A stretch of 55,246 bases of DNA, counting the filler, from Bipalium vagum (Eukaryota): NCBI GenBank assembly GCA_037834085.1. It is 3 parts of 3 records of this genome, joined end to end, with 100 filler letters (N's around TTAATTAATTAA, not from the genome) between each part and the next. Parts side by side here need not be neighbours in the genome. Positions count along the whole stretch, not along the records: positions 16,370 to 38,231 come from JBBMKC010230851.1; 2 more parts are not named here. One strand, written 5' to 3'. A program made the translations under genes and the position numbers. How positions within the stretch are numbered: the first letter of the stretch is position 1; each line of letters begins with the position of its first letter. The notes beneath the pieces are model-generated. The model saw only the letters and a program-made list of their open reading frames with translations, was not told the DNA's origin and made no database searches. Of this stretch, positions 3,543-42,486 are shown piece by piece.

Positions 3543-5061
3543 ATGACACAAAGATTATATGTTCATGGTATTCAAGATAATTCAAACCTTCCTTCTGTTT
3601 CCACCAGACAAAATTTTAACGGTTTCCATGTGGATAGAATTAAAAATGTGACTTCTTATGGATCATCATTTATTAACAATACTAATCCTCAGACAATGTT
3701 CTCTGCTCAGAACACACAGTCTGGTGAGTATAACAATTACCGTAATAATCCAAAACAAATTAGATCACAAAATGTATTTTATTCCCAACAAATTAATGAA
3801 GCAGCTAATGATAAGAACCACAACGGAGATTTTCATAATGTAAATTCAGAGAATGCTAAAAAAGTCAATTTAAACAAACATAACAATAATATATTATTAT
3901 CTGAAAATAATAAAGTTCAGTTTGCAGAGAACACTAAATTGTCTGTTCCTAATTCTGCAAATCGCAAAGAGGCCGTGTTTATCCAACAACCTGAATGTTT
4001 TGAAAGCGACGTGTCTTCCAATTTGAAAGAGATGTGTTTGGAAAGCTTACCCAATAATTCTGCATCTGAATCTACTGAAACCGGAAACTCTGGTATAACG
4101 AGAGAACATGTGATACCTATTGATTACATTTATTCTAATAATTATTATGGTCAAGCACTTCCTGTCCATGACAACAGAAAAAATATTTCCTATATAAGTC
4201 ACCAAATGCCTATTCAATTGATTTCGGTTCAAGGGCCCGTCGTTCTTAATAACAGTATTAATCCGAATCTCAGAAACATACATACTTATCCTCATTATTG
4301 CTTAGCCCCAATAGTCGATTACCAAAATGATAAAATGAAGCAACAGGATTCCGTTGCACATGAATCTAAAAACCAAGACTCAACAGTTACAAATAATTTG
4401 GAACCAATTCACCAGAACAATGATCTAATTGATGAATCTCATGTATTTTACAGTTCAGATCCAATTAAATCACAGCAAAACATTTATCAATATCCACACA
4501 ACGGAGATATAAATTGTTTGACGAACTTCCCATATGGCGCAACAAGTGAACCAAATCTGTCTAATATCTCGTTAACAGAGCAAACTAATTTTCAAAATCA
4601 TTGTCAACCAAATAATCTGTTCAAAGAAACTGGTAACATAACCGAAAAACAGAATGACAAAGATTTTTCGACAAGCTCCCATTCTAAACTAGAAGACAGT
4701 AATCCAGATGCTCCACGAAAGATTGGTAAATTTATCGTAACAAATGTGATCCAAACCAGTGAACCGGTGACAACAGTTTTGAAATCTAAAGAAAACACTG
4801 AAAACTCATTAAATCGTACTCCCAATTTGGACTTCGTGCATGAAGATCCTCCGAAACTTGCAAGACCTCAACAAAACTCGAGATTCAAGAAAACGAGAAT
4901 TAGAGAAACCGTTGAACGGTGGTGTATGAATGGTCTCAATGCGTACGATTGCAGATTTAAAATCATTCCTTCTAAGATTATGGCTCTGTATAATTCAAAA
5001 CCTGATTATCTGTCAAAGGGGATCGACATGGATTTAAGTTGCACGAAATGTGAAACTCATG
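3543..5061 (+). CDS. Large coding exon (506 codons) of an N/Q/S-rich protein, possibly a TSC22/Bunched long-isoform-like gene
   Basis: Long ORF with more GC than its flanks, AG immediately before the ATG, donor CATG|GTAAAA at 5061/5062 (phase 1). The ORF tail after 5061 is intronic ATT repeat. Motifs RKIGKFIVTNV and SRFKKTRI...RW. Confidence 0.75.
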
Positions 5062-6394
5062 GTAAAAAAATTAATTTTGAAATAATAATCAATTATTATT
5101 TATTTATTATTATTATAATTACTATCATGTGTATTATTATTATTATTATTAATTATTATTTTTTCTACTAGTAATAATATATAATTCACAAAATATTTTT
5201 CATATAAATTTACTCAATAAATATGGAAGTGACTAATTAATCTTAAATAAATATAATTTTCTTGGAAATACTTTTATATAATTTAATTTTTCTTATCTAA
5301 CTCTAATTAAAACAAATAACTGTTGACATTAGATTATTTTTTATTTGAAATATTTTCTGTCGATCAGGATATTTTTATTTTTTATTAATTTTAATTTTAA
5401 ATTTATAATCCACAGAAATATTTTTTAAAAATTATTAACAATTTTAGAAAAATATTTTTTTCAGTAAATAAAATATTAATATCATTAATCAATTAAAGAG
5501 GATAAATATATAAATTTTCTTTCAATAATTTAAATCTTCCATGACAAATCGTCACTGATTATCAAATTGATAAAAATGGCTATTGTAATAATAGTTATGA
5601 TATAAATTATAAAAATAGTTAAATATTCTTATCGATGTTATTATTTTATTTCATTATATCCCTGGCTTGATCAATTATTATTATTAGTTTATTAATAATA
5701 TTATTACTATGTAATATTTTAGTTGTATTATTTTAAGTTCTCGAGTAAAAAAACTTTCCAATTGATTTTTTGAAAAAAGTATTTAAGATATTTTTCTTAA
5801 TTCTTAAATTAAATTTTTCTTAGTTTTCTCATTTCCAATTTCGAAAAAGTATAACAAGTTTATTATTTTTCTGTTACTGAAAATGTTTAGATATTGGAAA
5901 ATCATTGGTGTAAACGTCAAGAAATGTAATTTCTTAATTTAACTGTTTTTAAAATAAATTAAAAATCAATTTTAAAAATAAAATTTAAAATAAATTATTT
6001 TACTTTGTTATTAAAATATTTTTCAGTAATCGATTCATATTTGATTTATATTTTTTCTTAAAAGATGCCGTTTTCTTTTTAAAATGTAATCTCTAATATT
6101 ATTTTGGTTATTTTAGAAACTATTTGTATTTATGTGTATTATAGGTTTTTAAGTATCACTCCGCTTTTTAGTATTTATGAATTTTATTTTCAAATAAAGA
6201 AAGTTTTATAATATGGATTGTTCTTTATCTGAAGTACTGTTAAAGTACTTTTTCATCTTTTCAATGTTCAAAATAAAAAAAACGGTTATACAGGATTTAG
6301 ATGACAAAATTCACACCTAAAAATACAAATTTTGTACAGTTTTACTTTCCATATTCAATTTGAAATAAATGGATATTGGTGAGCATAAATTACT

Positions 6395-16369: not shown

Positions 16370-16716
16370 CAAACCAATGCACACACCCAGACCGTTGAAA
16401 ACATGTGGATGAGGTTCAAAAAGAAGGTTAAGAAGTCACATGGCCTTTGTGGAGAGAAAAATTTGGTGAACGCTCTCAAATATTTTACAATTTTTGGAGC
16501 CACGTAATAGAATTTTACCCCATGTGAATATGAAATATGTAAATTTTGTGTTAAATAAACATTAAAAATTTCTTACATTTAATTATATATATATATATTA
16601 AAAAATAATCATATATAAAATAATAAGATTTAAAAAAATGATTTATTACTATTAGAAATAAGTAGTAAATTAAAATTAAAAAAATTTTATTTTTTTACGT
16701 TAAGTACAACAGTACC
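16370..16716 (+). mobile_element. 3' end of a Merlin (IS1595/IS1016-related) DNA transposon
   Basis: QTNAHTQTVENMWMRFKKKVKKSHGL then, after a frameshift or deletion, LWREKFGERSQIFYNFWSHVIEFYPM*. Candidate TIR CGTTAAGTACAACAGTACC (reverse complement GGTACTGTTGTACTTAACG) ends at 16716. Confidence 0.75.
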
Positions 16717-16800: not shown

Positions 16801-16993
16801 GGAAAGAACTCTTTTGCTTACCGAATACTCTTAATTTTTAAAAAATTATATACTCTCAGTACTGGTGGAAACCTTGCTCACTTACTAATTACTACTACTA
16901 CTATTAATTATTATTATTATTATTATTATAACGCTAAAATCTAATTAAAACTATAAAAAGCTCTATAAATAAAAGTCAGCAAAGGGATCTATT

Positions 16994-19900
16994 TTAATCT
17001 TTAATAAAAATCTTTTTGACTTGTCTCCACCATTTCGGTGACATGAGAGAGCCGACCAATTTCGTGTTGTCGTTAAACTTAACCCTGACAATGTCCATAT
17101 GGACCATGTCGTAAACCCTATTGATTTTCTTCCAGGCCAGAAAGGTGGACCCTGTCATGATGTAATTGGTTTTGTATCGCTTTCCAAAATTGCACGAGTC
17201 ACCTACCTCACATTTATTGAGACAGATCAAGTGGTGGCACTGTTGCATACTGCGGCTATAGCAATACTCCCAGCTTGCTCTGCCGACCTCAAATGCCAAC
17301 TTCTGGTACTTCTGGGACAGAGTAGCAAGATCTATCATTTTTTCGGCAAAATTGGGAGTGATCAATCTAAACGTTTCATCCTTTTCACAGATAACTAGGC
17401 CCAGAATCGTTATGTTTTTTTCCTTAATTATTAAAAAAAAATTCTCATCTGGATTCTTCAAGTACATTTTCTCAGCCTCTTCCCAGCTGACCCCTGGGAA
17501 GATGTTGGTTACCTTATGAATTTTTATGTAATCTACCGGATTGATATGTATGATTTCCGGTTCGTCTCGGAATATGTTATCATTGTCACTTGTCAAATCT
17601 CTGATGCCATGGTCGAACTGGTTATACCTTTTGGCATTATTTATCTCGACCTCCATGAGATCCAAAAAGTACTGGAACAGAGCATTCTGAATATTGATTT
17701 CAATACCAAGCAGTCTGTTCAAGAACTTGGTCACACTCAGATCTCTGTGGTCTTCCATCCCGACACTTTTCAAAGCCTTCAAGCTGGCCCTTCTGAAATT
17801 TTCGCTATCGTTGTCGAAATTTTTCATGTGGGTTTCCGGATATGGAGGCAAAGGCTTTTTGATATTGTTAATGTTGTCTACCAACTTTTTCAATGCCCTT
17901 GCTCCGAATTTTGTGTCAAAGTTAAATTGGCTCAAGTCTTGGGTTTCGCCACAGCGACGATCTCCGTGGGTCAAAGCACCTAGAGATTCAAGTCTTTTGG
18001 CAACGGTTGCCGCAAATCTTCTTTCTCCAGCAAGGTCTGATATAAGAAAGAGATAGTGTGGTTGGTTGACTTGGTTTGATCTGTGAGTTCGACCAAATTG
18101 TTGTATAGCTTTGTCCGCAGACCACGGCAGTTCGAGGGTTATGTGGAAACGTTCCGACTGATTAGTAAACTTTTTGTCAGAGTGCAAGGAAATCCCAGTA
18201 CTGGCTGCGTCTGATATAATGGCGACTATCTTTTGTCCATTGTTAAATCTGTCCTTTTCCAATAAATTGATCAGGTCCAAGTCGATATCACCTTCTCTTC
18301 TCGGTTGGTAGACAATTTTACCATCAACCTCAACCATTCTTCCTTTCCTTCCGGTCAGTTCAGCAACAAAGTCTGGCCCCCCAAATTCTTGAATCAGCTG
18401 ATCGAGAACATTGGGCGGAAACATGTCGCTCATTTCCTCAACCCTCTGAAGCAAGTTGTTTAGGTCAATGTTATCTTCAGAAAAGATGTTTTGGTCATCT
18501 TCAACATTCGACTGGTAGGAATCAGGGTATTCAAACTCCTTGACAGCGTCCTCCATATCGGAGTCGCTGCACTCAGAGCTGCTAAATTCGGAATCCTCAT
18601 CGTTTGGATTCTTGCCCATTGCTTTGTAATTCTTTTCTTCATTGACAGTCTTATTATCTTCGTTTTTTTTCCAAAAGCTAATGCTTTTCAACAACCTTTT
18701 TTCTTGAAGTCTCCTTAAGTTCTTCATGCTCGGAAATTGGGTCTTTATCATATTTTTGAGGATGGTCTTTGCATTGGACACATAGTCGGACAGTTCTCCA
18801 CAGTTCTCTTCCAGAACATTGTTGAGACTGGATTCTCCAGTCGACTGAAGACCGATTACAATACATTTTCCCTCCTCGATCTTTTCCATGGCAATCTGAA
18901 CACAGTCTTCTATCTTTGATGATATACAGAGGCATCTGAAAAACCTTTGGTGAGCTGCCCAAAATTGAGCCTGAAACATGCTTTCTTCTTTTTGAAAGTG
19001 TATTTTATTTCTTCTATATGCCCTCTGGAACACCTGGAAGATATGATTCCACAATTCCACACACTTATTGTATACATCTTCAAACTTGTGGCCATTAATC
19101 TTCAGATTTTCGTACTTGGTTTCTTTGATTTCAAATTTGATATTTTCAAAGCTCAATTGTCGAGCTAGATACATTCCTTTTTCCTTCATTTCCATGGCTA
19201 TCAGTTCCATGGCTCCCACCCCGTGTTTAGTCAAGGTACTCTCGAAATCTTCAAACTTAGTAAATGGCTTGCCAGGACCCCACAAGCCTAAGCGAACCAT
19301 ATAGACCATATGTTTAGGTTCTGAAGCACCGGTAGCACTAGCATAAACCACTCGGGATTCTTGGAGGATGTCCTGCAACCTTTTAACAAGAGTTCCGGTT
19401 TTCGTTTGCCTTCCATGATACACATTCTTGGCTTTATGACATTCATCGAAAACAATGACCCCGTCATAATTTCTACCAAACCATTGTATAATTTGATCAA
19501 AACGCGATTTGAAATATTTTGTCATGGGCCTTTTACAATTGCTAATTAACGAGGAATATGTTAGAAATAAAACCCCATCATTAAACCTTCCATTTGCTTT
19601 GGAATCGACCTTCAAGTATGACATCTTTTTCAATGATCGAATTTTTATTTCATGACCGATTTCTCTTCCAATATCTTTCAGATCTCTTTTGGCATCCTCT
19701 TTCAAATCCTTAGAAACCGATATCCACAAGGCTTTCTTTCTACCCCTCAAATAATTTTCATAAATTATACCGGCAACCGTTCGACCTTTACCAATTCCAG
19801 CTCCATCTCCAATAAGAAATCCCGCTCTTCGACCATCATTCAAATGCTCCTCGTGTTTCTGACAAGCATAAACCACTGCTTCAAGCTGAACCTTCGACAG

Positions 19901-20686
19901 AATACCCTTATTAATTACAATCCTTGGTATTTTTAGCTGATAATTGATTGCTGGACCTTGAACTGTGGATAAGGACTTTGATTCCACCACTTCATTGGGA
20001 TGGTCGCTTCCTATTTTCAATCTTGCCGACTCGTAATTAGAATACGCCTCACTGTACGTCAGTTGTCCGAATTCTGAGTTTTTTAAGCCCAAATCGTAGG
20101 CCACACCAGAATTGGGTTTATTAATCTGAGTAAGATTCGTACAAACCCTTGGAATGATGTCTTTACTGAGTTCAGTGTTCATTCTTTTGATTTCCGGCAA
20201 TTGATCGTTTACCGACATAGGATGATGGCGTTTTCTTTCCTGGACCTCTGTATTACGAACCGGGACAATTTTGATGATGTTATTTATTGGTTTACGGTCT
20301 TTTGAGTTGATTATTATAGGGGATCTTAGCTCAGTTTTAATCGAACTAATCATGGGACTTGAACTTACTATTGGAAACCTTTTATGTTCCTGTAATTGAT
20401 CTTTGGCGGTGGCCAGAAGGCTTGGTTTTTTCTCTTTGGTGTCTCTATTACTTACAAGGACTTTGGAGTTGTTCCTTTCTGGTCTAATTATTATAGAACC
20501 CTTTGGAATAGTCTTAATCGACCTGGCATACAGCACTGGAATTTTAAGGACATTCTGCACATTACTCGGATTAACATACTTCGTCTCTGTGCTGATTCTT
20601 TGCTCTTCTTCTTGAAGATCTGATTTCACTGAGAACTCCGTGTTCTCATTTGGTTTAAGTGTCAAATACTCGTAGAAAAAATCCAT
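16994..20686 (-). CDS. sbno: Strawberry notch family protein (SF2-like ATPase domain plus helicase C-terminal domain), intronless, 1230 aa
   Basis: Uninterrupted ORF with LKIGSDHPNEVVES, QLEAVVYACQKHE, GFLIGDGAGIGKGRT, DECHKAKN, YASATGASEP, GLQSTGE, VAELTGRKGR, HITLELPWSADKAIQQFGRTHRSNQ, RLESLGALTHGDRR, FLNRLLG and the C-terminal CHH..C...C..G motif. Confidence 0.96.
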   Translation of the reverse strand: MDFFYEYLTLKPNENTEFSVKSDLQEEEQRISTETKYVNPSNVQNVLKIPVLYARSIKTIPKGSIIIRPERNNSKVLVSNRDTKEKKPSLLATAKDQLQEHKRFPIVSSSPMISSIKTELRSPIIINSKDRKPINNIIKIVPVRNTEVQERKRHHPMSVNDQLPEIKRMNTELSKDIIPRVCTNLTQINKPNSGVAYDLGLKNSEFGQLTYSEAYSNYESARLKIGSDHPNEVVESKSLSTVQGPAINYQLKIPRIVINKGILSKVQLEAVVYACQKHEEHLNDGRRAGFLIGDGAGIGKGRTVAGIIYENYLRGRKKALWISVSKDLKEDAKRDLKDIGREIGHEIKIRSLKKMSYLKVDSKANGRFNDGVLFLTYSSLISNCKRPMTKYFKSRFDQIIQWFGRNYDGVIVFDECHKAKNVYHGRQTKTGTLVKRLQDILQESRVVYASATGASEPKHMVYMVRLGLWGPGKPFTKFEDFESTLTKHGVGAMELIAMEMKEKGMYLARQLSFENIKFEIKETKYENLKINGHKFEDVYNKCVELWNHIFQVFQRAYRRNKIHFQKEESMFQAQFWAAHQRFFRCLCISSKIEDCVQIAMEKIEEGKCIVIGLQSTGESSLNNVLEENCGELSDYVSNAKTILKNMIKTQFPSMKNLRRLQEKRLLKSISFWKKNEDNKTVNEEKNYKAMGKNPNDEDSEFSSSECSDSDMEDAVKEFEYPDSYQSNVEDDQNIFSEDNIDLNNLLQRVEEMSDMFPPNVLDQLIQEFGGPDFVAELTGRKGRMVEVDGKIVYQPRREGDIDLDLINLLEKDRFNNGQKIVAIISDAASTGISLHSDKKFTNQSERFHITLELPWSADKAIQQFGRTHRSNQVNQPHYLFLISDLAGERRFAATVAKRLESLGALTHGDRRCGETQDLSQFNFDTKFGARALKKLVDNINNIKKPLPPYPETHMKNFDNDSENFRRASLKALKSVGMEDHRDLSVTKFLNRLLGIEINIQNALFQYFLDLMEVEINNAKRYNQFDHGIRDLTSDNDNIFRDEPEIIHINPVDYIKIHKVTNIFPGVSWEEAEKMYLKNPDENFFLIIKEKNITILGLVICEKDETFRLITPNFAEKMIDLATLSQKYQKLAFEVGRASWEYCYSRSMQQCHHLICLNKCEVGDSCNFGKRYKTNYIMTGSTFLAWKKINRVYDMVHMDIVRVKFNDNTKLVGSLMSPKWWRQVKKIFIKD

Positions 20687-21863
20687 TGTTAATGTTTTTT
20701 CTCTTGATTGCTATTGGATGATATTTAAAAAATATTATTGCTAATTATAATAGTATTAGAGGAAAAGATCCTTTCAACTACGCACATAAATTAACAAATT
20801 ATTTAAATTTATTAACGAAAATTTATTTCCGTTTCTCAGAAATTAATTAAAAAATTTATTTCCGTTTAATTAAAAAATTAATTTTAATTTTAAAAAATTC
20901 AAATTTTTAATAATTTATAAAACATGATGGTCGCAGCTGACCGGTTTTCTCACAAATTTCTTCATTTTGTTTTTTCAAAAATTTTCTCAATGTCTTTTGG
21001 TCTGAATTTCGTTCTAAATGGATCTAGTGCTCTAGGTTCATTAAAACAAGACCAACCAGGCTATTCATTACTTATTTTTCTCGTTTTGCAAAATTTTGAT
21101 CAAATTTTTTTTAATAAATTCCGTTTTTTAATTTTTTATTATTAATTTCCTTAAAAACCCTTTCCCAGCGATTTTTTTCAACTTTCTCAATTTTCACTTC
21201 AAAATCTTTACAATTGATTATGATAAATATTTATCAAACATCGTCGAAAATCTTTATAATTTTATAGTAAACGCAAGAATTCACATAATACATAAATTCT
21301 ATATTATAAATATAAACAGTGTAATATGAATAATTATTAAAATAATAAAGATAGTTGATGAGGAGCAACCCAACAGTGACAATTGATTATTTCAATAAGG
21401 ATAAGAAGCTCCAAGCTTTAACGTCCTTTTTGCAATAGCTGCACTAAATAAAAGAACGATTATATAAATACAAGCATTAATAATAATATTTTCCTTTTTT
21501 AAGATAGTCAAAATATGATTTTAAAAAATTCTAATGTTAAAAATTAACCAATAAAAATAATGACAATTATGTATAATAAAAAATTTTCTTAAATGAATTT
21601 ACTGTTGGTTCAATTCTTAAAATATAGCTGTAGTTACTTTCTAAATATTGATATATTCTTCTGAACTGAAGATATATTCATTTGTACATTATATCGTAAT
21701 TTCGAATTAAGATAATATACTGCCCGTCCATATTTTTTGCACAGGAAGAATATTTTATAAATTTGACAACTATGTTTCTGGAATGAAATCTAACTACGTG
21801 CGATATAGGACTATGCAGTTGTTATCAGGTTTTTTATGCATATAGCCAAATTTTTCTGATATA

Positions 21864-22595
21864 CACTCCCGTGCAAAAGTATAGGGATACTTAATATTAT
21901 AATGATAAATTAACAAATTCTAATTACAACTTTCTGGTAAGTAAAAAATAAGGTATGGCAATAATAAATTATAGAGACCTTCAACATTTATTTAATTAAA
22001 AGAATTAGAATTTTTAAGAATTTCAGATAAAACCAACAATATCTCTCTTCATCAAAAATGGGCCTTTGCTTTCAATATGACTTTAACGATTCTGAGTATT
22101 CTCTATAAGATTTTGAAATTTAGATGATTCTAAATTATTCCATTCATATATTCCAATATTCTCCAGAGGTGTTCCTGAGAAGAAGAGCATTTTTTCTGAC
22201 CAGACGATCCAACTCATCCGAGAGTAACTTTATTGGATTCAAATCCAGAGACTGTGGCGACCAATCATTATTTGCAGAGTTCCATCTATTTGGTTTTGCT
22301 TTAGACATAGTTTAGCAGTATGTTTTGGATCATTATCTTGTTGCATAGCAAATCCATGTCCAATAAGTAGCTTTCTTGCAGGAACTGCCTTGTGAATCAG
22401 TATGTTATGATATTGCTTATGTTCCAGAATACGTTTGACCCTGTAAAGATGACAGACTTCTTGGAATGAAAATCCACCCAAAACTATTACTGAAAATCCT
22501 CCATGTTTAACAGTTAGAGTTATGCAGTTCAACATCATTTTTTCGTGTTTTGAACGTCTAACATACATCCGTCTGTCACTGCCGAATACTTCACA
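21864..22595 (-). mobile_element. Nested Tc1 (DD34E) fragment: one TIR plus catalytic domain
   Basis: TA|CACTCCCGTGCAAAAGTATAGG terminus. Peptides EVFGSDRRMYVRR, TVKHGG, QQDNDPKHTAK and WSPQSLDLNPI. Confidence 0.85.
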
Positions 22596-23804: not shown

Positions 23805-24663
23805 CTGTAAAATCCCGAGTATAAGCTGCAGCGCGTATTAGCTGCAGATGACATTTTATAAAAATGTATTTATTAGTCGTATAAACTGCCGCACCTATTA
23901 GCTGCATCATTTACGTTGAAAACACATGATCATTAAAAACAAATTTCAACGTGACAATAACCATTTTTGCTTTTATCGTTTCTATTGTTTACATTGTTTA
24001 TTGCACTGTTTTGAATCATTGATTAAAATGGATAACGATTCTGAACAAAAACAAAAGAAACAACGAAGATCTTTTAGTTCAGCAAAGAAAAAAGAAATCA
24101 TTGAATTAGCTTGTCAGTTAGGAAACATACGGTAGGTTGCAAGACGATATGATATTAATGAACCTGTTATTCGACGATGAATCGCTCAAGAGTCCGTTAT
24201 CAAAGCAATGAATCCAAATCGAAAATCTTTGCGTGGTGGTAACGTTAGATGTCCAGAATTGGAAAGGAAATTACACAAATGGATCCTAATTCAACATGAA
24301 CGAGAACTTCAAGTGTCAGTTGTCCGAATTCGTTTACAGGCACAAGTAATTGCCAAAGAGATGAAGATTGAAGGATTTGTCGCGAGCTCTCAAGGGACTG
24401 ATAATTTCATGAAACGCAAGAATATTTGTGTTTGACGAAATAAAATGAATGTGAACGAGTCTGATCCAAACATTGTAGAATTACTGGAAAATTTCACTTT
24501 TATTGACAATGAAAAGTGTGATGTTTTTGAGGACTGTGATGTTGAAAATTGAAATAAATAATCTTATCTTCGATTTGAATTGTTTCTTAGTTGTATTAGC
24601 TGCAATTCAAAAATGTTGCCTTTATGTACGTACTAGCTGCAGCTTATACTCGGGATTTTACAG
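23805..24663 (+). mobile_element. Nested non-autonomous pogo-family (POGK/Passer-like) element, 859 bp
   Basis: Perfect 28-bp TIR CTGTAAAATCCCGAGTATAAGCTGCAGC with TA TSDs. Brinker-like plus CENP-B HTH coding relic (RRSFSSAKKKEII...PELERKLHKWI...FVAS..NFMKRKNI) with stops; DDE domain deleted. Confidence 0.92.
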
Positions 24664-33000: not shown

Positions 33001-36000
33001 CAATAAAGAATTATAATCATTAAAGTAATAATAATAAATAATTTATGAGATCAATTATATATATGGTTATAAATCAAAAAATAATTATTATCAATAATAT
33101 TGATAATAAAATAATCGGTATTACAGAAATTTTTTTATTTTCATATAATAAAAATCATTAGAAAATATATGTCGCTGCTTTGTTTATTTGTTCCAACTGA
33201 ACGAACGTTGAAGTGTCATTTATAGACGAATGAAAATCATTAGGCCATTTGTAACAATGCCAAATTTGTTGAGAAATGTGACAACTCTCGGGTCAATTAT
33301 TATCACCACGCGCGGCGCACTGCCACCGTCATCACCATGGAGATGTTGAGCAGCGACCAACAGAAAATTGCAAAATATAGATTATTGATTAACCGAGCTA
33401 TCAACGGAAAGTAAAGGGAAACGGGAAATGAATAGCAATAAATAATAATAATAAATGATAGGTAAACAATTTTTAGGATCAAAGATAACAAAAGAAATTG
33501 TCTCACGTGAGTCGGTTCCAATCCGTTGGCAATTCGATGCCTGATGAAATTGACCACTTCCTGGTTTGTGAGGACGTCCCAAATGCCATCGCAAGCCATA
33601 ACGATGAACTCGTAGTCCGGAGTCTTTTCCTTCACGATCACGTCCGGATTGGCTGTATCGAACGAAATGAAGTAGGATCATAAATTGGAGAACAAATGCA
33701 TTGTTAACATTTACTAACCGTTTTAATTATCTTTTTATTACTGTTCTTTTGAAAATAATAATAATAATTTATTTTTAATAATATAACATTGATAATCTAT
33801 ATTGATTATTATAATTATAAGTTCTAATTAAAATCAATTATTACATTCAAAATTCAGACTGATTTTTATAATTAATATTATCATTATAAATTTTATTGAC
33901 TGTTGGTTATTTATAAAAATATTTTTTATTTTCATTTAAAATATTTTTGTATTTTTTTATTGATAATATTATTAATTATAATATTTAAAGACACATTATT
34001 GATTTCAGTTAATAACTTTAATTTTCTCAACAACTAAAAATAAAAATAATATAATATTAATTAATTAATAATTATTATTTTACTTAGTGGACCATTGTTG
34101 ATTTTAATTAATATTTATCTTCTCATCCACTAATAATAATTAATAATAATGAAATAACAATCAATAATAACAATAATATATTATTTTCAATTTTCGAAAA
34201 AATTAATTAACTAAAACTTCAGAAATTTTTTTAAGAAAATGAGGAATTAAGATCAATTAATTTTAAAAAGAGATCAATAATTCACAATAAATGAAATACA
34301 AAATCGATCTACCTGTAACGATTTGTTCTTCCGCTGATTTTTTCGTATTCTTTTTGAACACGAAATCGCCCAAGGCTCGAGAGAGTGCCAAATTGCCATT
34401 GACCCGGTTCCAGTCTACCCAACCTCCAGCAGAAATGATCCGTTCTCTTTCAGCTTGAATACTCGGTTTGTGATCAAATGACAAAGAAACTGCTCGACCG
34501 GAAACGCTGGCTACAGCTCTACTGTCACCAGCATTGCCACAATAGATGAGATTGTCTTTAATGAGCACAACAATTCCCGTAGAACCAGCCAATTCGTCTC
34601 TCACATCTTTGTCTTCCAACATGTTTTGATCCAGAGCCAAAAACGATTTGCGAATAGCTTCAGGAACATCTCCCTTTTCTGATTTTAAAATCAGTAAAGA
34701 TTAATAAAATAAATTGAAATCAAGCTAAATATATAATTCGAAACGTGTCCTTTAACACATTGATCGTCAGAAAAATTATTATTATTAATTAATTTTCAGT
34801 TGAAACCAACCACATATGCATTGGTCAAATAGAAGTACATAACTATTAATTTTGGGAGGCAAAAATAAATTTAAATGAGACACAAAATCATACATAACGC
34901 TGTCAAGATAGTGACGAAGGGTGCTCAATACGACAGCCTTCGCGTTAAAGATTGATTAAAATCAGAATTAAACTAATTTGAAGTAGTTTAGATCAAAATA
35001 AAAAGTGCAAAAAATTCCTCAAAAAATAAACAAATGAAATCAACCCACCATACTGATCAATTTTTATTTATTTAATAAATTATTTTCAATTATTGATTAA
35101 TTCACTGTCAATAATTGATCAATATAATAAACTAATTTTAAGGAAATTATTTATATTTGGTTGGGGAAAATTTTTTTCGTATTTTATAAAAACATTGAAT
35201 TTGAATAGAAAAGTTAAATAAAATCTATTTAAAAAAATAAATTTATGATGTTCACAAGATTAGAACTAAAATAAAATCATTTACTTAACTAATACCGACA
35301 CGTCTTTTACGTCGATAATCTTTTTCTTTTTTCAGGTCGATCCATTATTCCATCACTAAAAATTTTCTTGATTATTTTTGACCAAAAAATGTACAATATC
35401 CGTCACATTCCTTCATAGAACTGAACTTTATTCCATTCTAAAGACCTAAATATTAGGATTTACATCCAAAAGAGACAATGCTCACAGAATGATGTCATAA
35501 ATTTTTCGTCAGTAAAACATGATGAAATTATTAACTGTGACAAATATTGTTCTGAAATTGAAATAATGCATAAAGAATTATGCATTAAACAGCGGTCAAT
35601 GATCAATAGAGAAAGATTCATCCTGTTACATGACAATGCACGAACACATGTCAAAGAAGACGTTGCAAAAGCTAAACGACTTAAACATTAAAACTGTATC
35701 ACATCTTCCTTATTCGCCATACTTACCTCAAACTGATTACCATATTTTTAAGCATCTGAATAATTTCTTGGTTCAAAAAATCATAACTGAATCAGGATGA
35801 TGTCGAAACCACCTCATCCGAATTCCTGGACTCCAGAAATTCAGATTTTCATGCAAATGGGATTCTGATATTAGTCCGTACATAAGAAAATGCGTAGAGT
35901 CCAATGGTGAATATTATAATTAAATAAAAATTTTATTTAACTTTTTATTTATTACATAGCTGGACATTTCATGTGACAACCTAATACATGAAAATCTGAC

Positions 36001-38331: not shown

Positions 38332-39457
38332 ATTTTAATTAAAGACGAACACGCACAACAGCAACCTTCAACCGTTGAGACCTAAGATACATTTACGCTC
38401 CGACCTTTGAAATCCTTTTTATCCATCAACTTAGGACCTTAACATGTCTTATTCTATGGCAATCATATTCGACGATCTCTTTTCAAGATATAATAAATGC
38501 AGTACATTTTGTTTCATGTATAATTGTGGTACTTAGAAATGTTTTCTTGATTTAGAACTTCGAAACCAATTGGAGTTTAGTAAACACGAAATAGGAAGAT
38601 ATTGTATAATTAGAGAATGAGGGTGTTTTACTATATAGAGCGTACTATTTTTATCTAACTAAGAATCAGAACCTCTCTCATTGAACGTTGTTAACCAGAA
38701 TAACAATTTTAACCTTACTTAAATATAGAAATTTTCTTACGTTTATATTTCTGCTTCAAGAGATTAAATTTTCGTTTCTTTTTCTGATCAAAAAAGTACT
38801 TTCTGTTGGTTTTAGTAACAATATTGTATCTTGGAAAATTACATATTTTCCATTAATAACCAATGTTTACGTATTATAGTAATACATTGATTTGACATTA
38901 ATTTATGACAAGATTTTAAGCTTTATAGAATTATTTTTGATTTCAACTGCTGTATAACTATTTTTAAAAGACTAAAACCAATACTCAAGGATAAAAAGAA
39001 TAAATAACATCCGAAAAAGGTTAAGGGATTTATTAAAAGTGATAACATTTTTTACAGTTTAAAATAGTTTTCCGCACCAAAATAATCATTATTTTTTCAA
39101 TTTAAACAAAACCAATTCAAAACTGAAATAAATAACGATTTTATAATTATTAATAAACTGCTTAGTGTAATAATGTATATTAATAACTGCTACTTGTATC
39201 ACTTTGGTTGTTTAAAACAAAAAACAAGCGCATAATTGACCAATGCTGGCTACCTAAAATACCATTGATACCAAAATATAATCGACAATAAACCATTATC
39301 TTCCCGTAAAATGCATTAAAAACAGAAAAACCTCATTAAAATTGGTCATAAAGAGATTCTCATCACCTAGAAATCAATATAGAACTTTTTTGAAAGAAAC
39401 TAATAAATATTAACATCAATCGATGGTAAAAAGACAAATTTTATATTTAATCATTAC

Positions 39458-42400
39458 TCAAGAAGCACTTCCTTGATTCTTGTTCTGGATAGCCATTTTT
39501 ACATCTTGACAAAGTTTACGTTGCTGATCTTCAACATTTTTTGAGATTCCTGACCGAAGTGAATCAATAAGGTTCTTTGTAGTACCGAAATAAATGTCAC
39601 TGAGTTGCTTTCTGATCGAGTTTTCCATGTCCTGGTGACATTAGAAATATTTTAAAGTATAATTTATCTCAAACAATTCAATTAAATAACAGTAATCATT
39701 TAAATAAGCAAGTCGAGAAATTCATTGGAAAAAGTTTGTGACACATTACATTTCAACAATAATTTTTGGAACTCAATTTCATTTATAAAATCCTTCCATT
39801 AAACATCCAAATTGATTTAATAATTATATTAATTATATATTGAAAATATTGATTTATTGTAATTCAAAATTTAAATTTATAAATAAATAAATCTTAAAGT
39901 TAGTATATTTTATTTAATCATTAAATTCAAATAATTAATAATAATAAGTATTAAATAAGCTTTCCTTTTAATTTTAATAAAAAATCTCAATTGAAAATAG
40001 ACACAAAGGTAAATTAGAAATTTTTATTCTTGGACTATATTTCATACCTTTTTCAAAAGGATTTTTTTAATTGGTTATTATTTTTGACAAAAATAGTTGT
40101 AAATAATTACTTCAACTAATCTACCGATGTTAACAATGTGGTTGTTAGCATCACTAAGCGGCACATCTTTCTCTGTCATTCGAGTCAGGCTTCCACCAAG
40201 ATTAAAGCAACCAGTTTCAGAATTTTGAGTCTCAAGCCACAGCATAATTGTACTTGTTAGTTTGTATCGACCATTTCTACTCTTTTCCTAAACGAAAAAT
40301 CTTTTTAATTTCGTTACTTTATTGATAAAGCAGAAATAGAAATTCCGAAATAAAATTATAGTTGAAACATAAAATTCAAGATATGCATATCTGAAGTCAC
40401 GCTTAATAAGCACTTGTCTGAGTTCTTAGATGCGATTCAAACTAAGTAGTTGACATTTACATGTTTATTTAGGTAATATTATTTTTCATAAAGTTTGATT
40501 CTATTTATCTAATTGGATGCTTTGATTTCTAAAAAATACCATAGATATGATCGATTTTTCTTCAGCTTTTTAGAAGGATATCTGAAAAAACTTTTTCTAG
40601 TGAATTGATAGTTGAAAAATAAAGATCGAATTTAATATGGGGTGATTATTCAGATTCCAGGGAAAGAGACAACTTTTTAAGACCTTTTTATATATTCATA
40701 AATTCTGTTAATTATATAAGTTTTACAAATATATTTCCTTCAGTCAAATTTTTAATATCGTTTATCAATCGAATAAGTTTCTCAATAAAATATGAAGCAA
40801 ATGTGTTTGGGAGTGCATTTTGAAAATAGATATAACTTCCACTGGTAATTATAAATTGATTAAACACATTTATGATCATAAGTGCTTTAAAGGTTTCTTT
40901 CAATTACATATCCTAGTTGAAATTAGTTTCCATTCATAATGTACCATGGGGAATTATTCTCTTTTGTAAAAAACAGAAATTACTACGTCCAGAAAACCTA
41001 AAGGGTTTTTAATGCTTAATCTCTAAAACGAGCGCTAAAAGAGTAGCAAATAAAAATAAAATCGTAATTATCATTAAGCTTTACTGAAAATAACAAACAT
41101 ATGGCCAATTTCTTCACTGACGTATTTCTATTTTTTGGAATTTTCATTTTCATTTGAAATGGATTCATCTTTTCTTTGATTTGTAATTTAAATAATTCAA
41201 AAAACCAAACCAAAGTTTGTGCCTTTTATATTTCACAAGATAAGTAGTGCAACCAATAAAATAAAACGGCAAAACAAATGAAAAGATAAAGAATTGTAAC
41301 TATTAATTCTGCAAGTATCTTTTAAAGCTGATTTTATATTTTAAATAGCAAGTGTGACAGAATAGAGATTTTATCAAATACTAATGACTTGTAATTATCA
41401 ACTCAAAGGAATTAAAGCCCTGTCAAGGGAATAATTAAAGGGAATTATATTCACTATTTCTGTATCCCAATGGTAAGTGGAACTCAGGAAAAACAGAAAA
41501 CCGGGTACAATACTGAATATCTTTCAGATGACTTGCATGAGAATAATGATTATAGAAAATATTTTGAATACCGAATGGAACTTTTATTTAAAGGATTAAT
41601 TGAAATACGAATAGAAAAATATCAATGAGCTAAAAGGTGACAAATCAATAATTTTAGAAAAGAAAAAAATATATACATTGGTTTTTTCTATATAATTATG
41701 AACCTAGGTATAATTCAAAGAATAAATTTTATGAATCGCCCATCAGAAAATTAATGATTAAAAGGTTAAGATTATTGTGACAGTTTGCAACCATGGTGTA
41801 AATTGTTAATCTTAAAAAATTGGTATACATAATTTATCACAGTATCGATTATTTAAAAAATCAAGAGAATTGTCATAATTCAATATATAGAAGAAAAATA
41901 AAAAATTTTATGTAAAAATGTTCAAAACAAACCAACCTCAACTTCTATCACGTGAATGGAATCCCAACATCCAATAGCGGCCTTCAGCTCTCCAACCTTT
42001 TTGATCAAGACAGCACCAGCAAAACCACTATCCAAATCCCATAAATACACAGAGGACACTCCACCATCATAATACATTTCTCGATACACATCAAATGCCT
42101 TGTTTGCTTCAATTTCTAATGCACGAACTCTGTCACTTGGTAATGATCCATCTTCCAATGGGGGATCATATCGATTCGACCAGGGAGACCTATAAGAATC
42201 ACCATCTCGATTATAGTCACCTAGCAAATAATCTTTTCCAGTCTAATAAAAAGATGAATTAAAAATGATATAATTAAACAGACTTTAGTATCTTTAGCGA
42301 TTTTTAGTGGTTGATCTACTGAACTAAGTAGATCTTCGCAAAGATCTGGAACTAACTCAATGAGATCCTGCAAACTTTTGTCAATTTTTTGTGGTGGCAA

Positions 42401-42486
42401 TCGCCTCATTAAGTCGAGAGCAGAATCAAGTTGGTCACCCTTTAATTAATACATAAAGTTGTTCTTTAAAATTAAAGCAATACCAT
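39458..42486 (-). CDS. cpb: F-actin capping protein subunit beta, 271 aa; coding exons 42486-42484 (ATG only), 42439-42284, 42242-41937, 40287-40111, 39631-39458
   Basis: All introns GT-AG, phase 0. Motifs [76 protein letters not shown] and [14 protein letters not shown]. Confidence 0.96.

Follow-up and report, generated by a model that had tools for sequence, protein, structure and literature searches.

A 55,246-nucleotide stretch of DNA from Bipalium vagum (assembly GCA_037834085.1), hereafter the window, carries an intact and intronless gene of the strawberry notch (SBNO) family, which we call R1. The window is a pack of three stretches, and R1 lies within positions 16370-38231, which are contig JBBMKC010230851.1 (C230851). 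It belongs to a group of five single-frame copies whose closest relative is an intron-containing SBNO gene, the parent, of the same genome. The explanation that we favour, and hold as a whole to be probable, is that an ancient retroposed founder was later duplicated and gave rise to nuclear ATP-driven co-regulators, likely of the germline. A retro-origin of the copy clade is very likely, and we are slightly more confident still that the copies give an expressed, functional protein; a germline bias, argued by analogy, may or may not hold, the chances being about equal.

An intronless clade beside its intron-containing parent

The genome was searched with SBNO queries and every candidate was scored. 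All searches of this fragmented assembly (272,664 contigs) gave the same inventory: five intact single-frame copies, one split intron-containing parent and one broken fragment.

R1, contig C230851 (in the window): single-frame copy
R2, contig C219254: single-frame copy
R3, contig C17214: single-frame copy
R4, contig C203805, continuing into C37243 via a 77-nt overlap: single frame, 5′ end missing at the contig edge
R5, contig C200397: single-frame copy
Parent SBNO, contigs C120750 and C210897: split gene with 8 exons

A preliminary description of the window had read R1 as a retroposed paralogue kept open by selection, possibly one of a lineage-specific family, and had named as the case against itself that R1 be the only SBNO of the genome. 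The parent and four further intact copies were found instead, and the family proved real. As proteins the copies are 51-79% identical to one another. The broken 1.1-kb fragment (L018:1562-2597) follows R4 at a distance of about 1 kb, with the same orientation, and is 90% identical to R5; a decayed R5-like piece at this place hints that R4 and R5 are, or were, chromosomally close.

The parent model has 8 coding exons separated by 7 GT-AG introns and 1420 codons with no internal stop; its intron 7 spans a contig gap at an (ATT)n repeat. Its ATG directly follows a pyrimidine tract and AG (L017:835-846), which could belong to an intron of the 5′ untranslated region (UTR) or to a spliced-leader acceptor. 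Flatworm spliced leaders end in AUG. All seven intron sites of the parent are read straight through in each of the five copies. R1 and R2 begin with MDFF as the parent does, so the founder probably spanned the entire coding region.

In a mixture-model tree (25 rows by 895 columns, with the N-terminus, the linker and the flatworm insert omitted), the five copies form one clade with support 100/100 and a stem length of 0.74, sister to the parent with support 100/100. Copies and parent together fall inside the flatworm clade (98/99) and outside Neodermata, to which they are weakly sister (87/85). A FastTree analysis of 91 rows recovers both own-genome clades as well. Shared characters follow the same lines: a 6-residue insertion is common to the parent, the five copies and all seven neodermatan SBNOs and is absent from Macrostomum and 30 other animal rows, while N815, D826 and T830, in a region that we take to be near motif V, occur in the parent and all five copies and in 0 of 38 other animals. 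The simplest reading of these sequences is that the clade was founded once and then went through four duplications. In large protein searches neither the copy clade nor the parent had a close relative, the best named matches being 41-53% identical to R1 and, for a parent exon, about 60%.

It is very improbable that other organisms, assembled along with this one, contributed the intronless copies, or that these are alleles left uncollapsed. The fragmentation of the assembly leaves some room for this, and read cover was looked at for R1 and the parent. Against it, R1 shares its contig with an intron-containing PP2C gene and R5 lies with calpain exons; the copies are too distant as proteins to be alleles, and MCM is found at eight full loci without a near pair. 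In addition, contigs of the X1 read run cover both the 5′ half of R1 and the parent at similar depth. The contig over R1 joins this half to the AT-rich flank with zero differing letters, bearing in mind that X1 may be the source of the assembly itself.

Structure and domains of R1

The features of R1 are listed below.

16994..20686, minus strand: R1, single-frame SBNO gene and putative retrogene, 1230 aa, ATG to TAA, unbroken open reading frame
20051..20686, minus strand: basic, poorly conserved N-terminal region, beginning MDFF as in the parent, with basic patches read by eye as similar to nuclear localization signals
19103..20005, minus strand: AAA_34, first RecA-like lobe, with Walker A GDGAGIGKGR (19781-19810), DECH (19436-19447) and SAT (19331-19339)
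19088..19108, minus strand: the 6-residue insertion
18503..18658, minus strand: acidic linker of low confidence (predicted local distance difference test, pLDDT, below 50); the linker of the parent is longer
17597..18412, minus strand: Helicase_C_4, second lobe, with QQFGRTHR (18080-18103) and lineage-specific ISDAASTG (18194-18217; ISEAASSG in other animals)
17177..17491, minus strand: SBNO alpha/beta domain, ending in a conserved Cys/His cluster (17183-17239)
17309..20019, minus strand: span of the seven fused exon junctions, each corresponding to an intron of the parent, at 20019, 19456, 18865, 18767, 18271, 17598 and 17309
20687..20922, minus strand: non-coding block with a CCAAT, also conserved at R2; may be a promoter or 5′ UTR
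16930..16993, minus strand: short 3′ non-coding block conserved with R2

R1 encodes a complete strawberry notch ATPase of helicase superfamily 2 (SF2). Its three Pfam domains all score above curated cut-offs and follow the order AAA_34 (PF13872, aa 228-528, E 6.5e-125), Helicase_C_4 (PF13871, aa 759-1030, E 4.9e-100) and SBNO (PF25373, aa 1066-1170); the domain search gave no fused methylase or other extra domain in R1. The preliminary description had reported an intact, intronless frame that retains its ATPase-like motifs, and this is borne out: 1230 codons are unbroken and the four motifs start at aa 293 (GDGAGIGKGR), 414 (DECH), 450 (SAT) and 862 (QQFGRTHR). Walker A, the DExH box, motif III and motif VI are intact in the five copies and the parent, with the sole change that R3 reads DESH instead of DECH. 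The C-terminal Cys/His cluster is kept in R1 too. The ATPase lobes of R1 are 56-67% identical to the known strawberry notch family.

The N-terminus was rightly described as basic, lysine and arginine making up 15.7% of it in R1, against 7.4% in the parent and 4-12% in six other animals. The strong divergence reported for the C-terminal third is also there, at 30% identity to chimp SBNO1; it is not peculiar to the copy, since the parent stands at 30% as well, and must be taken as lineage-wide. GC content at third codon positions is 0.44 in R1 and 0.29-0.35 in its sibling copies.

We modelled residues 213-1230 of R1 with AlphaFold from a 71-sequence alignment. The model has a mean pLDDT of 85 and a predicted template modelling (TM) score of 0.81, the acidic linker being its main disordered part, and the SF2/SNF2-like fold is predicted to be intact. 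With Foldseek, its nearest solved folds are RapA, Chd1, CSB/Rad26 and ISW1 (9-14% identity, E 4.5e-11 to about 1e-7), with TM-scores by query of at most 0.33 and RIG-I-like RNA helicases nearly as good. The PDB sequence search returned no relevant solved relative, its three matches being spurious antibodies.

The copies are under purifying selection and evolve fast

The copies are under purifying selection. Between R1 and R2 the rates of nonsynonymous (dN) and synonymous (dS) change are 0.128 and 0.63, a dN/dS of 0.20 (bootstrap 0.17-0.24); the ratio stays below 0.3 in six of six regions, the second ATPase lobe having the lowest value (0.08) and the N-terminus the highest (0.28). A codon model across the five copies gives 0.115. 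In most other pairs of copies synonymous sites are saturated and the proteins are still 51-60% identical; parent-copy synonymous sites are saturated as well. In neutral simulations at three levels of divergence (0.1-0.31 substitutions per site; 300 runs per level), the frame stayed open in 0 of 900 cases, so the open frame of R1 is not due to chance. The broken fragment is an internal control for decay: some 5% diverged from R5, it has already gathered seven indels, six of them frame-shifting. A paralogue kept open by selection is what had been proposed for R1; the intron-containing parent, the monophyly of the copies with it and a dN/dS well below 1 bear this out.

Every copy nonetheless evolves faster than the parent. 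Root-to-tip paths in the mixture-model tree are 1.12-1.55 for the copies and 0.48 for the parent, or 2.3-3.2 times as long, and 10 of 10 relative-rate tests are significant. The terminal branch of R1 is longer than that of R2, significantly so with one of four outgroups. Out of 368 columns conserved across animals, the copies keep 286-305 and the parent 329; thirty are altered in at least four of the five copies yet kept in the parent. A number of these thirty fall in the segment that runs from motif III to the helical insert.

Such rates raise the thought that the copies took up a new role in genome defence, for instance transposon silencing, with birth-and-death turnover in an arms race. The long paths and the thirty altered columns would fit, as would one dead fragment in a repeat-rich genome, and PMC5512222 places Sno-like ATPases in prokaryotic conflict systems. 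Still, dN/dS between R1 and R2 is low in every region, no new domain was gained, and relaxed constraint explains the rate equally well. We consider this role unlikely.

Retroposition or duplication with later loss of introns

We propose that one ancient mRNA of the 8-exon parent was reverse-transcribed by a host retroelement reverse transcriptase, which would have given the intronless founder. Reverse transcriptases are abundant in the genome (5450 candidates; 150 of the 150 scored match). The founder would then have multiplied by further duplication, presumably at the DNA rather than the RNA level.

Whether introns were lost or gained was judged from the footprints that exon boundaries leave as breaks in other animals' database protein models. 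The site of intron 1 coincides with breaks in macaque and quail models, the macaque reading on with Cys as the unspliced parent would; a Trichobilharzia model departs at the site of intron 3, a Schistosoma curassoni fragment ends at that of intron 4, and models of Callorhinchus and crocodile break at that of intron 6. Footprints at four of seven sites favour loss in the copies rather than gain in the parent, as far as protein sequences can tell.

The alternative that bears most directly on this point has the clade begin as a DNA-level duplicate, segmental or whole-genome, that later lost its introns through recombination with cDNA. The genome does hold many old intron-sharing pairs: cpb (window 39400-42450), Hsp60 and at least four CCT subunits, 71-78% identical in nucleotides and with a synonymous divergence (pS) of 0.68-0.82, values that are approximate as some frames were possibly double-counted. 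The chaperonin survey covers 30 of 50 matches, and its subunit names are presumed ones. These pairs may go back to an ancient duplication, whole-genome or otherwise large in scale, with biased retention afterwards, MCM (eight full loci, no near pair), the SBNO parent and PP2C having stayed without one, and such an event may also lie behind one deep split among the copies. As parent-copy synonymous sites are saturated, the split of the clade could match the old pairs in age. We asked the same of R1 and R2 and rejected them as members of this peak: their pS of 0.43 makes them younger. Seven of seven introns, the 5′-most included, are gone in all copies, which a single retroposition explains in one step, and the AG found immediately before the ATG of the parent is missing from every copy. 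Altogether, DNA-level duplication with later intron loss appears unlikely, and retroposition of one founder is preferred.

Several observations weigh against retroposition and should be read with it. The listed break positions number about 80, many in the variable linker, and only three lie within one residue of a parent intron; the fourth footprint was spotted by eye, and the database protein models gave none for introns 2, 5 and 7. An intron at the 5′ end may still exist in R3 to R5, R4 lacking that end. Inspection of the flanks of R1 found neither a poly(A) tail nor a target-site duplication; such hallmarks are expected to have decayed, given the saturated dS towards the parent. About 20 changes at conserved sites are found in the parent only, little below the 30 of the copy clade. 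Finally, one CCT subunit, presumably CCT1, exists as an intron-poor pair (a single frame of more than 520 codons) and a third copy richer in introns, a pattern that recalls SBNO; the pair appears to retain the first intron, and here too introns may have been lost after DNA duplication, as the alternative would have it.

Flanks, neighbours and mobile elements

Upstream of the frame R1 and R2 remain similar over 236 nt, downstream of it over 64 nt, and no further. The upstream block has a local score of 161, against a mean of 37 and a maximum of 63 in 300 shuffled comparisons, and the next 600 bp upstream are at background; the 3′ block scores 52 against a shuffled maximum of 38. These flanks fit a constrained promoter or UTR, as judged from their sequence, and the copies would be transcribed from the conserved upstream block. 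Being compatible with either a DNA duplication or a second retroposition, the shared flanks do not tell how R1 and R2 separated. The 3′ block of R1 is followed by a (TAA)n/(TAG)n microsatellite, with no poly(A) run of eight or more.

Fragments of DNA transposons and high-copy repeats flank R1, and transposase fragments occur near R1, R3 and R4, which is to be expected where reverse-transcriptase candidates run into the thousands. One in the window is the following.

24181..24432, plus strand: Tc5/pogo transposase helix-turn-helix fragment upstream of R1 (E 8.6e-9), not common to the other copies

A transposon-rich pocket, as R1's surroundings had been called, is therefore a fair picture of the flanks themselves; an enrichment over the genome is not shown, and the parent locus likewise begins in a high-copy repeat. 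The suggestion that R1 had been mobilised by an element was not supported by a comparison of the flanks of the copies, in which no shared termini or flanking element were found. That a mobile element carries R1 as cargo, or that R1 has a bacterial or phage origin, is hardly credible: transposase fragments do lie within 4 kb of it, and prokaryotic Sno-like ATPases exist (PMC5512222), but the similarity of R1 and R2 stops without common ends and the copies lie far from six long outgroup proteins of probable prokaryotic type. Since they nest with the host's parent among flatworms, bacterial transfer is not supported, in agreement with the earlier doubt about it.

The neighbours differ from copy to copy: PP2C for R1, a single-copy 478-aa frame for R2 and calpain exons for R5, the parent contigs showing no neighbouring gene. 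The 478-codon frame adjoining R2 (L011:1167-2600) has no Pfam match and looks coiled-coil-like by eye; a genome search found no close second copy of it or of the PP2C beside R1. PP2C and cpb are intron-bearing, as first described: introns separate the PP2C exons and cpb has four coding exons. The protein search with cpb gave one match at 94% and otherwise no close named relative.

Other remnants were seen in the window. Two transposase-like ones, at 16372-16572 and 22242-22595, have no Pfam match and a high read depth, and are presumably Merlin/ISXO2-like and Tc1-like. Another, at 35425-35688, gives a weak mariner match within a PP2C intron. At 3543-5171, a 542-codon frame rich in N, Q and S has no Pfam match and is probably a large exon running into an intron microsatellite.

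Predicted function

PMC5389439 presents mouse Sbno1 as a nuclear co-activator that depends on the glutamate of its DExH box and has FACT, Yap/Tead and Notch/Rbpj as binding partners, and states that helicase activity of SBNO is not known. Arabidopsis FGT1 acts at promoters with SWI/SNF and ISWI remodelers (PMC5040591). With ATPase motifs, predicted fold and basic patches resembling nuclear localization signals all retained, the copies are predicted to act in a similar way: they would hydrolyse ATP, move on DNA and help to open promoters or maintain them.

The new upstream region and the faster rate suggest a narrower setting of action, in which the copies would co-regulate transcription in a restricted cell type. 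Our best guess is the germline: any retrocopy has to arise in it, retrogenes show a testis bias (PMC5470649), SBNO1 is required in mouse spermatogonial stem cells (PMC6628735), and strawberry notch is modestly raised in the mature tapeworm strobila (PMC6225667).

A bolder version, which we rate as a long shot, is that a single retrocopy released an essential, normally low-copy chromatin ATPase from its ancestral constraints and let it become a five-gene germline chromatin-remodelling subfamily directed against transposons and subject to birth and death. If true, it would be the first case of an SBNO subfamily with genome defence as its specialty, and would provide natural variants of this ATPase that are tractable by RNA interference.

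SBNO is conserved from plants to mammals, essential in mouse and usually present in one or two copies. Six intact versions in one genome, five of them from one intronless founder and down to 51% identical, indicate that it can be amplified and specialised; the copies mark which "invariant" residues tolerate change. As an observation of comparative genomics, they offer a clean example of retrogenes kept over a long time, in an animal lineage that has been sampled little.

Comparison with known systems

By each sequence feature examined R1 belongs to the SBNO family, and by the main features it is a retrogene. R1 shares its domain order, DExH box, motif VI and C-terminal cysteine cluster with the strawberry notch family (Drosophila sno, vertebrate SBNO1/SBNO2, C. 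elegans let-765 and Arabidopsis FGT1). It differs in being intronless and faster, with a basic N-terminus and a shorter linker, and R1 and R2 lack the C-terminal tail. This genome has six intact SBNO genes, whereas FGT1 is single-copy and humans have two (PMC5040591).

Second copies are known elsewhere. Those of Drosophila sno, in D. serrata (XP_020803666.1, 1168 aa) and D. virilis (LOC6635455, 3325 aa), are long-branch, lineage-specific duplicates next to a conserved gene, like the present ones, but of independent origin and each a single extra copy, not a five-member clade. Drosophila CG3491 is tabulated as an SBNO2 homologue in PMC11309114 and PMC12324250. A tardigrade and Steinernema have two SBNO genes each.

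Among solved proteins, the SWI2/SNF2-like translocases RapA, Chd1, CSB/Rad26 and ISW1 match the model best, yet at low identity. With the prokaryotic Sno-like SWI2/SNF2 domains of polyvalent proteins R1 neither groups nor shares its build.

In mode of origin there is a parallel with the functional retrogenes with secondary duplication, for which PMC5470649 describes loss of all parental introns, a new upstream region, purifying selection and a faster rate, all found here; the copies differ in having no poly(A) or target-site duplication left. Our paper searches gave no published report of an SBNO retrogene family, of such retrogenes in this lineage or of a five-member intronless clade past synonymous saturation, although supplementary gene-family tables could list one. 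The novelty lies in the size and retention of this intronless clade, and not in a new type of protein.

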